Shown: piece after piece, positions 24,692-28,821 of the stretch | How positions within the stretch are numbered: the first letter of the stretch is position 1 | Layout: each line of letters begins with the position of its first letter | DNA from: an uncultured archaeon | GTDB lineage: Archaea; Asgardarchaeota; Thorarchaeia; Thorarchaeales; CAZPUN01 | Assembly (NCBI GenBank): GCA_964589775.1 | Contig: CAZPUN010000027.1 | Coordinates: forward strand, 1-32,000 | DNA: 32,000 bases | Direction: 5' to 3' | Program-made: the position numbers and the translations under genes | The notes under the pieces: model-generated | What the model was told of the DNA's origin: nothing | Databases searched by the model: none | Seen by the model: the letters and a program-made list of their open reading frames with translations, nothing else

Positions 24692-25420
24692 TCAAATCTT
24701 CGGGAATTCTCCTCTTTCAAATTTTTTTACGAAATCTACCAACTCATTTATAGCTGCTTCGACTATTACTGTACCTTTTGCTGGACTTGCTTTTGTTGGA
24801 TCTCCATACATACCATCTTTAAGCTGTTTACTTCTTAGTTTTGATGAATAGAAACTAAATTCAAAATGCGGTCTCCATGCAACGGCTTTGCTCAAATCTA
24901 CAAGGTCCGGTCGCACTGCCATGACTTCTGAGGTCTCGTCTTCCGCCGCATGGCCTTCTTGAGTTTCTAAAACTTTCTTGCGTGCGTCTTTTCCAAGATC
25001 TAACCACCAGTTTATTACTACAATTATTGCATCGTTTCCTTCGCACGCTTCTTCTGCGGCAGCTCTAATATGTCCTGCATTACCTCCATGTCCATTTAGT
25101 ACTATAATTTTCTTGATTCCATTTGCTATTATTGCTCGTAAGACTTCAGTATAGAAGTTACGAAGTGTATCTGGCGATATAGAGATCGTGCCCGGAAAAT
25201 CTTTGAAATGCCAGGAATCGCCAAATGGTATAGGCGGAAGAACTAAAGCGTCTGTTTTTTCTGCCACAACTTTAGAAATCTCAGTCGGTAACAACATATC
25301 TGTAAAAAGTGGAAGGTGCTTTCCGTGTGCCTCTAATGAACCACATGGCAGAATTGCAACGCTATTTTCATTCCTTAAGTCATCAAATTTTGGTGAAGAT
25401 AATTCTCCCCATAATGGCAT
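24692..25420 (-). CDS. Creatininase-family amidohydrolase
   Basis: Motifs GSLEAHGKHLP..D, HFKDFPGTIS, NGHGGN, GHAAEDETS, GDPTKAS..KG. Confidence 0.92.
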   Translation of the reverse strand: MPLWGELSSPKFDDLRNENSVAILPCGSLEAHGKHLPLFTDMLLPTEISKVVAEKTDALVLPPIPFGDSWHFKDFPGTISISPDTLRNFYTEVLRAIIANGIKKIIVLNGHGGNAGHIRAAAEEACEGNDAIIVVINWWLDLGKDARKKVLETQEGHAAEDETSEVMAVRPDLVDLSKAVAWRPHFEFSFYSSKLRSKQLKDGMYGDPTKASPAKGTVIVEAAINELVDFVKKFERGEFPKI

Positions 25421-25548: not shown

Positions 25549-25642
25549 AGCCCGGTGGTGTAGTGGTCAGGGTAAATTCCCCACAAAAGCATTTGGGACT
25601 CTGGATCCCGAGACCCAGGTTCGAATCCTGGCCGGGCTACCA
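25549..25642 (+). tRNA. tRNA-Gln(CTG) with an 18-nt non-canonical D-loop intron (25569-25586) and encoded CCA
   Basis: Acceptor stem AGCCCGG/CCGGGCT followed by A-CCA; anticodon CTG at 25601-25603; T-arm CCAGG-TTCGAAT-CCTGG. Removing AGGGTAAATTCCCCACAA restores the D-arm GTGT-AGTGGTCAA-GCAT. Confidence 0.95.
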
Positions 25643-25727
25643 TTTATGCCTAATTTTCATTTAACTATTAGTGGTTAGTGAGAATTAGGTCAAAAAAAAG
25701 TAGTATTAAAAAAACAATAACAACAAG

Positions 25728-25792
25728 GGAGCCCTGTGTGACCTTTTTGCCGGGAGGCCACTTAGGTTCACTAAGCGTGAACACAGGACTCC
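25728..25792 (-). ncRNA. Candidate 65-nt structured small RNA (three-way junction), family unknown
   Basis: Minus-strand fold: 12-bp closing stem GGAGUCCUGUGU/ACACAGGGCUCC, plus hairpins GCUUAG-UGAAC-CUAAGU and GGCCU-CCCGGCAAAA-AGGUC. All three imperfect pairs are G-U on the minus strand and A-C mismatches on the plus strand. Confidence 0.65.
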
Positions 25793-25814
25793 ATATAATA
25801 TTTTATATAAATGC

Positions 25815-25830
25815 TTTTAAAATCTTTTGG
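25815..25830 (-). promoter_or_regulatory. Putative BRE-TATA promoter for the 65-nt RNA
   Basis: Minus strand reads CCAAAAGA-TTTTAAAA, with the TATA-like box 23-30 nt upstream of G25792. The AT-rich background limits certainty. Confidence 0.45.
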
Positions 25831-25944
25831 CTTTTAGCAACTAAATTGTTAAAAAAAGTATATATGTGGATAATTCTTCTACACAAATGTAATATGATTA
25901 TGCTGAACAATGTATATTTTTTAAAAGGTAATAGAAATAGCAAG

Positions 25945-26598: not shown

Positions 26599-28821
26599 GT
26601 GAACAAGTTGGTAAGAGTAAAGAACCCCGACGATATTAGAAAAATGGTTATGGGAGGCGATATTAAGAAAAAGAGAATTATCAGTATCGCTGCCCATATT
26701 GACCATGGAAAGACTACAACAACTGACTATCTATTACGAAGAGCAGGTCTTATGAGTGATGAAGCTGCAGGTCAGGCTCTGATGACCGATTCCGATGAGG
26801 AAGAACAACAGAGAGGCATTACAATTTTCACAAGCGTTGTCATGCTTACATTCAAAGTTGGAGATGAAGAATACGTTATTCAATTGAACGATACCCCCGG
26901 ACACCTTTCATTTACCGGTGAAGTATCTCGAGCTCTTAGAGCCTCTGATGGTGCAGTAATCTTAGTTGATGCTTTAGAAGGTGTCATGACTCAGACCGAA
27001 ACCAATATTCGTCTTGCTGTTGGTGGAGAATATTGTAAGCCTGTTTTGTTCATTAATAAAGTAGATCGATTAATTAATGAACTTAAGCTTCCACCAGCTA
27101 AAGTATATGAACGTATTGACATGATTATTGATAAAGTGAATGCCCTCATCCGCAAGATTGCACCAAAAGAATACGCAAAGCAATGGCAAGTTAGCTTCCA
27201 GAAGGGTAGTGTAGCCATTGGTTCTGCAAAGCATGGCTGGGGCTTCACGATGGACATTCTGACAGAGAAGAACATCAAGCCCAACCTTGTATTCGAAAAG
27301 TATAATGAGGGCGATGTTAAGTGGCTTCGTGAAAACCTACAACTTGATGAAGCGTTATTACGTATGATTGTGAAGCATCTTCCAGACCCTCAGACCGCTC
27401 AGCAGTATCGTATTCCTAAGATCTGGACTGGTGATTTAGAGTCAGAAGTCGGAAAAGCTCTTCTGAACTGTGATCCTAATGGTCCTCTACTGGGTATGAT
27501 TACTAAGATATTTATCGATCCTAAGAGCAAAAGACCTACACTTATTGGTCGTGTTTATTCCGGTACATTATCTGCCGGTCAGGAAATCTATCTTGTTAAT
27601 CAGAGAAAGAAGACTCGTGTCAGAAGACTTGGAGTTATGGAAATCACAGATATCCTTGATGTAGAAAAGATTCCTGCAGGAAACTTATTCGCTGTATTTG
27701 GTTTCATGTGCCCTGCAGGCGAGTCATTCATTGAGCCGGGCAAGAAAATCGCTCCATTTGAGAGCATAGAATATGTAAGCGAACCTGTTGTCAGTCGAAG
27801 TATCAAACCAAAAGATCCTCAGGACCTTGCTAAGCTTGGTGAAGTTGTATCTAAATGGATCATGGCCGATCCCACCGCTCGATTCGTTCATGATAAAGAA
27901 TCTGGTGAGTATCGTCTAGATGGTATTGACCCACTTCAGATTGAAATCCTGACCAAGCGTATAAATGAACAGATTCCAATCAAAGTATCCGAGCCAATTA
28001 TTGTATATCGTGAAGTTCCCGAAGCACGCAGTCAGGAATATCACACCAAGTCTCCAAATGGTCACAACCGTATCAAGATCTATCTTGAGCCACTAGATGA
28101 AAAGACCGTCGAACTTCTTCGTCGTAAGCGAATTAACATGGAACAGGATCCCAAAGTACGCGGTCAAATTCTTAGAGATGAAGCCGGTTGGGATCCAAAG
28201 GCTGCACGAAATATCTGGGATATTTATGAAACCAACTTGCTGATTAACGTCACAACTGGAGTTCAGAGATTAGACCGCATTAAAGACTATGTAATCAATA
28301 TCTTCCGTGAATGGTGTAATCGTGGTACACTTGCACATGAGCCTGTCATGGGTGTAAAGGTATTCATTACAGATGCCACAGTTCACGTTGATCCTGCTCA
28401 CACTGGATTTAGTGAAATTATGACAATGGTGTCATCCGCATTGAACTTATGTTTCTTAACAGCAGATCCAAAGCTCTATGAACCTATGCTTAAAGTCGAC
28501 ATTAAGACACCTGCAGAGACCCAAGGTGCAGTTATCAAAGTCCTTACAGGTCATCGTGGTCAGATTCTAGATATTACTCCTGAAGAAGACAGCGTAATTG
28601 TAAAGGGAATTATTCCAACTGCAGAAACAATTGGTATCGCTGATGAATTTCGAAGTGTAACTTCCGGTAGAAGCTTCTTTGGCTATGAGTTTATGGGATT
28701 CAGACCAATACCTGCAAACATGCAAGAAGCTAAGATTCTCGAAATTCGTAAGAGGAAGGGACTTCCAGAAGAATTACCAAAGCCCGACAATTGGCTCAGA
28801 TTCGTCTACAAGAGAACATAA
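26599..28821 (+). CDS. Archaeal elongation factor 2 homolog, probably the divergent paralog (aEF-2p)
   Basis: AHIDHGKTT, RGITI, DTPGH, NKVDR and a full five-domain length. The diphthamide loop reads HVDPAHTG, GMGELH is replaced by GIDPLQ, and no rpS7/rpS12 genes are adjacent. Confidence 0.88.
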   Translation: MNKLVRVKNPDDIRKMVMGGDIKKKRIISIAAHIDHGKTTTTDYLLRRAGLMSDEAAGQALMTDSDEEEQQRGITIFTSVVMLTFKVGDEEYVIQLNDTPGHLSFTGEVSRALRASDGAVILVDALEGVMTQTETNIRLAVGGEYCKPVLFINKVDRLINELKLPPAKVYERIDMIIDKVNALIRKIAPKEYAKQWQVSFQKGSVAIGSAKHGWGFTMDILTEKNIKPNLVFEKYNEGDVKWLRENLQLDEALLRMIVKHLPDPQTAQQYRIPKIWTGDLESEVGKALLNCDPNGPLLGMITKIFIDPKSKRPTLIGRVYSGTLSAGQEIYLVNQRKKTRVRRLGVMEITDILDVEKIPAGNLFAVFGFMCPAGESFIEPGKKIAPFESIEYVSEPVVSRSIKPKDPQDLAKLGEVVSKWIMADPTARFVHDKESGEYRLDGIDPLQIEILTKRINEQIPIKVSEPIIVYREVPEARSQEYHTKSPNGHNRIKIYLEPLDEKTVELLRRKRINMEQDPKVRGQILRDEAGWDPKAARNIWDIYETNLLINVTTGVQRLDRIKDYVINIFREWCNRGTLAHEPVMGVKVFITDATVHVDPAHTGFSEIMTMVSSALNLCFLTADPKLYEPMLKVDIKTPAETQGAVIKVLTGHRGQILDITPEEDSVIVKGIIPTAETIGIADEFRSVTSGRSFFGYEFMGFRPIPANMQEAKILEIRKRKGLPEELPKPDNWLRFVYKRT

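Follow-up and report, generated by a model that had tools for sequence, protein, structure and literature searches.

A short GC-rich island lying between a tRNA gene and an FeS-assembly gene of an Asgard archaeon raises the question of whether it encodes an RNA and, if so, what that RNA would do. The first-pass annotation of this DNA had read it as an independently transcribed RNA of a new class, reminiscent of Y or vault RNAs. Asgard archaea are the closest prokaryotic relatives of eukaryotes, and a literature search found, to our knowledge, no regulatory small RNA with a defined target described in them. Since these organisms have not been cultured, such regulators have to be sought chiefly through comparative evidence. 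Throughout, the window is the whole stretch of 32,000 nucleotides that was analyzed, and the genome that contains it is called the window genome.

The 65-nt element and its surroundings

The element, its predicted signals and the neighboring genes have the following positions in the window.

25728..25792, minus strand: 65-nt small RNA, predicted mature body 5' GGAG...CUCC 3' (fold z score, conservation in four lineages, single copy)
25783..25792, minus strand: 5' strand of P1, pairing with 25728-25737 (minimum-energy fold)
25728..25737, minus strand: 3' strand of P1, with one U-G pair (minimum-energy fold)
25766..25782, minus strand: P2 hairpin, 6 bp, 5-nt loop (minimum-energy fold)
25762..25765, minus strand: 4-nt junction linker from P2 to P3 (minimum-energy fold)
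25738..25761, minus strand: P3 hairpin, 7 bp, 10-nt loop (minimum-energy fold)
25749-25757, minus strand: invariant 9-mer CCUCCCGGC at the P3 apex
25815..25838, minus strand: conserved promoter block (24/24 columns invariant in relatives)
25823-25830, minus strand: BRE-like sequence
25815-25822, minus strand: TATA-like sequence TTTTAAAA, 22 nt before G25792
25708-25714 (T7) and 25692-25699 (T8), minus strand: oligo-T tracts, probable archaeal terminators, kept in relatives
25549..25642, plus strand: tRNA-Gln(CUG) with a D-loop intron, convergent with the small RNA (Rfam 52 bits, anticodon loop)
24692..25420, minus strand: creatininase-family protein gene, used as a synteny anchor
26599..28821, plus strand: EF-2 paralog gene, 740 aa, used as a synteny anchor

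The minus strand folds into a three-way junction in which P1 has 10 bp and the junction linkers measure 0/4/0 nt. Its energy of -32.1 kcal/mol compares with -19.5 +/- 2.75 kcal/mol for dinucleotide shuffles (z -4.58), and none of 200 shuffles folded as well. The plus strand of 25728-25792 gives a weaker fold (-27.7 kcal/mol, z -3.0), in which A-C mismatches replace the two G-U pairs of the minus-strand P1 and P3. The minus-strand three-way junction of the first-pass annotation is thus confirmed, although its 12-bp closing stem belongs to another register of the fold, the minimum-energy version having the 10-bp P1 and a P2 of 6 bp instead of 4 bp. The single G-U pair assigned to each helix is found in two of the three helices (P1 and P3) and is missing from the third. 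The conformational switch proposed for GUUCAC and GUGAAC does not hold, as this pairing is P2 of the minimum-energy fold and amounts merely to a choice of register at the P1/P2 boundary.

Rfam contains no match to the window RNA at gathering scores or at E<=10, its Y_RNA and Vault models included, in line with the earlier failure to match it to tRNA, C/D, H/ACA, SECIS, SRP-Alu or hammerhead cores. An origin as a fragment of SRP RNA (Alu domain) was rejected because the complete SRP RNA sits at C13:49681-49993 (183 bits) and the element has no Archaea_SRP match. A genome search found one copy in the 2.16-Mb genome.

Loci of near relatives were found by synteny through the adjacent FeS-assembly protein, and four lineages were compared; the window genome was the only species genome of its family (f1) returned for its order. 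Across these lineages, 64/65 columns of the RNA and 24/24 columns of the promoter block are invariant, while conservation is only 44% in the spacer toward the FeS gene and 65-68% in the other flanks. In the alignment, this pattern is a phylogenetic footprint of a predicted promoter and its RNA. Because the f1 stems never vary, these relatives provide no covariation. Taken on sequence grounds, the interval 25728-25792 is most likely a real, conserved small-RNA gene.

The transcription signals were also found as first described. A BRE/TATA-like block (25815-25830) lies at the canonical distance upstream, its octamer ending 22 nt before G25792, and the U-tracts expected downstream correspond to T7 and T8 on the minus strand. 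We infer that the window RNA would be transcribed from its own BRE/TATA promoter. The converging neighbor is a tRNA-Gln, as had been stated, with an Rfam tRNA score of 52 bits and a CUG anticodon loop; ARAGORN miscalls the tRNA at 25549-25642 as tRNA-Cys, and the CUG anticodon loop identifies it as Gln. Its intron of about 20 nt, in the D-loop region, differs in sequence between near relatives, and the orthologs in most sister-family genomes are ordinary 76-nt genes. As for the EF-2 paralog, its top match, at 99% identity, is a 90%-identity cluster containing near relatives, and the next homologs among 5.8 billion proteins reach at most 75% identity, which marks the lineage as isolated. The source records of its homologs carry the label Thorarchaeota.

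The counterpart in the sister family

Searches based on the window RNA itself did not extend past the near relatives. BLAST against 40 relatives gave no match, nor did a single-sequence covariance model (R1) against 86 genomes of the order, and a loop-fixed pattern scan of 185,579 species genomes returned nine bacterial chance matches, none of them confirmed by R1. Synteny through the FeS gene failed at the order level and was usable for near relatives only. The locus of the sister family f2, which belongs to the same Asgard (Thorarchaeota-like) order and comprises 86 genomes here, was reached via the nearest f2 homolog of the EF-2 paralog. In the syntenic locus L041, genes follow the order creatininase / tRNA-Gln(CUG) / three-way-junction RNA / ... 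/ EF-2, and the RNA is a GC-rich three-way junction of 98 nt (z -4.5).

This f2 RNA, of about 95 nt, has BLAST homologs in 46/86 f2 genomes, always one per genome. A covariance model built from 46 sequences (R3; models R2 and R3, alignments A6 and A7) extended it to 76/86 genomes and 15/16 genera, with one copy per genome apart from an extra contig-end fragment in one assembly. Divergent copies are present in at least four of the ten R3-negative genomes. R3 found none in 123 genomes of 25 other Asgard families, and the f2 RNAs have no match in Rfam. From alignments A6 and A7, the family could be entered in Rfam.

All f2 members share a TATA box of the TTTATAGG type, whose end lies 22-23 nt ahead of the 5' GGAG, and a pyrimidine- or U-rich tail that follows the 3' CUCC. 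The 9-mer CCUCCCGGC stands at the P3 apex in every f2 sequence seen, and two modules of the body, the internal loop of P1 and the basal stem of P3, are conserved without pairing. A tRNA-Gln(CUG) that lacks an intron is encoded on the same strand as the small RNA, 180-250 nt upstream of it. A pseudoknot between the P1 loop and P3 was rejected, as the complementarity, judged by eye, is not kept across genera. Two local features concern single f2 loci. In L052 (G072:C21), a run of N and then a duplicated 3' end of the small RNA lie downstream of it, probably a scaffolding artifact, and in genus g2 (L041:3179-3854), a PIN/MazE-like toxin-antitoxin pair separates the small RNA from a methyltransferase gene.

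The covariation that had been named as a check on the first-pass annotation is strong in the sister-family RNA: 94% of cells are paired, a figure that falls to 43-52% if the 3' partner is slid, both sides have changed in 19/32 pairs, and 0/500 shuffles do as well as the real alignment. The strand is fixed by numerous G-U pairs. These data bear on whether the element is functional at all, since an island next to a tRNA gene, a common integration target, might be no more than a GC-rich palindrome that arose by chance, a MITE or other repeat, or a site acting at the DNA level, for example one where an integrase attaches. We find such an origin scarcely credible given the compensatory changes in 19 family pairs, the G-U pairs that favor one strand, and a conservation far above that of the flanks. 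Dispersed copies, which the annotation had listed as grounds for a MITE, were not seen, the element being single copy in the window genome and essentially one per genome in the sister family.

In 49 f2 loci (L054:1638-2417 on the plus strand and 48 others), a gene for a conserved class I SAM-methyltransferase of 259 aa lies downstream of the small-RNA gene, in its orientation and before the EF-2 paralog. This arrangement, together with the position of the window RNA, on the strand of the FeS gene and 150 nt downstream of it, would suit a cis element, that is, a 3' UTR or terminator of the FeS gene, an antisense of tRNA-Gln or, in f2, a leader or riboswitch of the methyltransferase. We regard a cis role as very improbable. 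The FeS gene is absent from the f2 locus, on which ground a 3' element of that gene was rejected, and the TATA box is conserved 22-23 nt before the 5' G in both families. A leader or riboswitch was rejected because the start of the methyltransferase gene lies anywhere between 93 and 435 nt from the RNA, some genomes have other genes in between, and a conserved promoter-like motif of its own (ATGACAAGCTTCATATC-like) precedes the methyltransferase gene. Furthermore, tblastn found no ortholog of this methyltransferase in the window genome.

The window RNA and the f2 RNA share the P1-P2-P3 order, the GGAG/CUCC closure, a TATA-to-5'-G spacing of 22-23 nt and a creatininase / tRNA-Gln(CUG) / EF-2 paralog neighborhood, as well as the apical 9-mer and, as described below, an orthologous target. 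The 9-mer CCUCCCGGC occurs only four times in the window genome, both strands counted, and base composition predicts about 7e-4 occurrences in the 1.2-kb interval of the locus. The window P2 is identical at 13/14 bases to P2 of the f2 genus g13, and the 5' strand of the window P1 resembles a fused P1a and P1b of the f2 RNA (18/23 in a local alignment with L060). Local alignments to f2 members reach z values up to 5.4 (median 3.5), against a median of -0.8 and a maximum of 1.8 for the reverse-complement control. A whole-genome search of the window genome with R3 gave no match and no other candidate copy; the window RNA scores only 8.3 bits (E 8), which does not rise above noise, so homology rests on synteny, shared motifs and architecture, and we call it a reduced ortholog and not a canonical member.

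Compared with the f2 RNA, the window RNA has no P1 internal loop and lacks the basal two-thirds of P3 (65 nt against about 95 nt), and its gene does not adjoin a methyltransferase gene and is inverted relative to tRNA-Gln. We read the window RNA as a reduced ortholog in which the P1 internal loop and basal P3 would have been deleted and the apex kept. In our reading, the window lineage would have lost the methyltransferase gene together with these two modules, while the apex that it retained is the target-complementary part.

The candidate target and its co-variation with the RNA

A whole-genome search with the window RNA returned, as the best non-self match, a 15-nt complement in the leader of a small-protein gene.

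25747..25761 of the window, minus strand: 15-nt stretch complementary to the target 5' UTR (best non-self match in the genome)
G000:C56:14105-14119: target site, in the window genome, contig C56
C56 13842-14096, minus strand: target small-protein gene (P0127)

The leader sequence UUGCCGGGAGGCCAC, 9-23 nt upstream of the AUG, is complementary at 15/15 positions to GUGGCCUCCCGGCAA of the window RNA. The possibility of a chance match inside an ORF was rejected by the true start codon and the sister-family orthologs. When 3,643 5' regions were scanned with the P3 hairpin, this leader ranked first, its energy being -39.8 kcal/mol where the mean was -9.7 (sd 3.7). Among the f1 relatives a single base of the small RNA varies, 2 nt outside the 15-nt complementary stretch, and the leader hairpin with the site is kept at 21/22 bases as its flanks diverge. 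The UTR loop of the lineage represented by L284 differs by one base, A instead of U, where the duplex ends.

The sister family points to the same target. The complement of the f2 apex, taken as an 11-mer, is present about two to three times in each f2 genome, compared with about 0.3 for the reversed control. One occurrence is the small-RNA gene itself, and the other recurs in a single conserved context, consisting of a TATA box flanked by ACGTTTACT-like repeats, a hairpin with the site in its loop and the start of a small ORF. This ORF encodes a highly conserved protein of 85-87 aa, single-copy in 66/86 f2 genomes and found in all 17 genera of the order. The hairpin encloses the site in 40/40 distinct leaders, and the site is fully unpaired in 28/40. 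In the window genome, the leader is 45 nt long (L169:1753-1797, minus strand) and has GGGAGG as its sole SD-like element, which falls within the site and 11-17 nt from the AUG; the sequence at the 3' end of 16S rRNA is ...CACCUCCU.

The target protein belongs to no Pfam or NCBIfam family. Its AlphaFold2 model is confident (alpha-beta4-alpha, pLDDT 87) and has no fold match in the PDB at E<=0.001; KTSC-like similarity by structure (protein-atlas rows) offers weak leads only. Homologs in other Asgard families have neither the UTR hairpin nor the site, which makes the module of small RNA and leader an innovation of this order. The TATA box of the target gene is flanked or followed by an operator-like motif, AGCGTACGCT in the window genome (L169:1756-1905, minus strand; upstream of C56 14096) and ACGT(G/T)TACT repeats in the f2 loci L149-L167. 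This motif suggests that the gene may be under transcriptional control besides the small-RNA site, and with both an operator-like motif and a small-RNA site, the conserved protein appears to be tightly regulated.

Both partners have changed together. In 39/39 genomes from which both were retrieved, apex and leader share 9-15 contiguous pairs, typically 12, and cognate pairs exceed non-cognate pairings in 2000/2000 permutations; since the genomes are related and not independent, these counts overstate the number of independent events. The f1 small RNA forms 15 bp with its cognate leader, against 8-10 bp with those of f2, and f2 small RNAs form 11 bp with the f1 leader. This shorter cross-pairing means that both flanks of the invariant core changed together, and the f1/f2 contrast involves six flank positions, all of them complementary in the cognate pair. 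Compensation is seen in G063 (GGCGA with UCGCC) and G015 (GUCCUCC with GGAGGAC), and in G015, G030 and G060 the small RNA has lost one C, to which GGAGGA in the leader corresponds. The nine bases at the core of the interaction are invariant, covariation being confined to their flanks, and both complementary stretches are partly base-paired within their own hairpins.

Predicted action and relation to known RNAs

The complementarity and co-variation of the invariant apical loop with an mRNA 5' UTR place the window RNA among the base-pairing regulatory small RNAs rather than in a new class. The small RNA and the leader probably form a base-pairing regulatory pair, the RNA being a new family of a known kind. 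Of the earlier proposal of an independently transcribed new class, the independent minus-strand gene absent from Rfam stands at the sequence level, and the new class does not, since base-pairing regulators of this sort are known.

We think it likely that the window RNA is a trans-acting regulator of 65 nt with its own promoter, a reduced ortholog of the f2 RNA that would kiss the target leader and most likely repress its translation. In the mechanism that we propose, P1, P2 and the junction would act as a scaffold presenting the P3 apex, whose C-rich 9-mer would kiss the G-rich loop of the 5'-terminal hairpin in the mRNA encoding the 85-87 aa protein. The kissing complex could then extend to a duplex of 12-15 bp, and the pairing would cover the SD-like GGGAGG, block 30S binding and so repress translation. 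Repression is the likeliest outcome because the leader has no SD-like element other than the one within the site; the spacing of 11-17 nt between GGGAGG and the AUG is long for a Shine-Dalgarno sequence, which makes occlusion of the ribosome site less firm and keeps activation or stabilization a real alternative.

Under that alternative, which we rate as possible but clearly less likely, the same small RNA would pair with the same leader and would open or remodel the hairpin in it, or would shield the mRNA at its 5' end. The distance of the SD-like element from the AUG and its place inside a hairpin at the extreme mRNA 5' end fit such a role, and extended pairing would unzip the leader hairpin (the alternative duplex of G011). 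However, the site is already fully unpaired in the loop of 28/40 UTRs, so that opening of the hairpin is not needed for its exposure. Moreover, covering the sole purine-rich element of a leader is the classical repressing arrangement, as known for sRNA162, RsaE and OxyS.

The pairing data also bear on the comparison with Y and vault RNAs, according to which the element would be a protein-binding scaffold of an RNP of that or another type and its complementarity to the mRNA would be incidental. It is true that the 5' and 3' ends pair into a closing stem within a compact three-way junction, as do the ends of Y and vault RNAs, that those RNAs likewise have promoters of their own, and that the f2 body retains conserved non-pairing modules in the P1 internal loop and the P3 basal stem. 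Nevertheless, sequence conservation between the two families is confined to the target-complementary apex, whose flanks co-vary with the target, and the target UTR ranks first genome-wide; the conserved part is thus an antisense loop and not a protein-binding bulged helix. No TROVE/Ro60 gene was found in the genome, in a search whose positive control (Deinococcus) worked. A search for the MVP repeat of the vault protein gave no match, either in the genome or in its positive control. With the invariant part of the RNA being an apical loop complementary to an mRNA 5' UTR, the Y- or vault-like reading is abandoned, and a scaffold RNP in general appears improbable. In view of the methyltransferase gene that almost always follows the f2 RNA, and of its loss in the window lineage along with the extra RNA modules, the f2 small RNA could also guide the neighboring SAM-methyltransferase to the mRNA hairpin, in an RNA-guided methylation unrelated to C/D-box guides; we hold this to be unlikely.

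The regulatory pair that we favor has its nearest archaeal parallel in sRNA162 of Methanosarcina mazei, a trans-encoded small RNA with its own promoter that pairs with the 5' UTR and ribosome-binding region of an mRNA encoding a small regulatory protein (PMC3510493). The likeness lies in the seed complementary to the 5' UTR and ribosome-binding site, and in a promoter that for the window RNA is predicted from sequence. In contrast to sRNA162, to which it has no sequence or structural similarity, the window RNA is a three-way junction that would present a single apical loop to the loop of a hairpin; it occurs in one Asgard order only and is known from comparative evidence and not from genetics.

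Bacterial parallels, compared here from general knowledge, concern the contact itself. RsaE/RoxS of Firmicutes pairs a C-rich apical loop with a G-rich Shine-Dalgarno-like sequence, and in the kissing antisense RNAs CopA-CopT and OxyS-fhlA the first contact is loop to loop between two hairpins. The window RNA resembles these systems in its C-rich loop facing a G-rich SD-like site and in the predicted loop-to-loop contact, but they are bacterial and non-homologous, their scaffolds and helper proteins differ, and the SD-like element of the window target is unusually far from the AUG. With compensatory changes on both partners across one order and a single top-ranked mRNA target, the pair represents a testable entry point to post-transcriptional control in Asgard archaea.

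Other partners for the apical loop were considered as well. Pairing with the 16S 5' end was rejected because the 5' hairpin sequence differs in the window genome, pairing with the apex of SRP helix 8 because the 8-nt match falls within a self-paired tetraloop hairpin, and pairing with the tRNA-Gln acceptor because it amounts to only 6 bp. The second-best loop site lies around 45734 of G000:C48 (minus strand), where an 11-nt complement gives -30.4 kcal/mol. It falls inside an apparent promoter-led structured element with a long GGUCUCGGAGAG/CUCUCCGAGAUC hairpin and no clear ORF, and it could be a second target or another noncoding RNA. Finally, in genus g6 the 11-mer complement also occurs in a second conserved context (L151, G009:C1:80924-81334; L164, G006:C14:116306-116716), which resembles a structured RNA in that a 5' AUGGCG pairs with a 3' CGCCAU.
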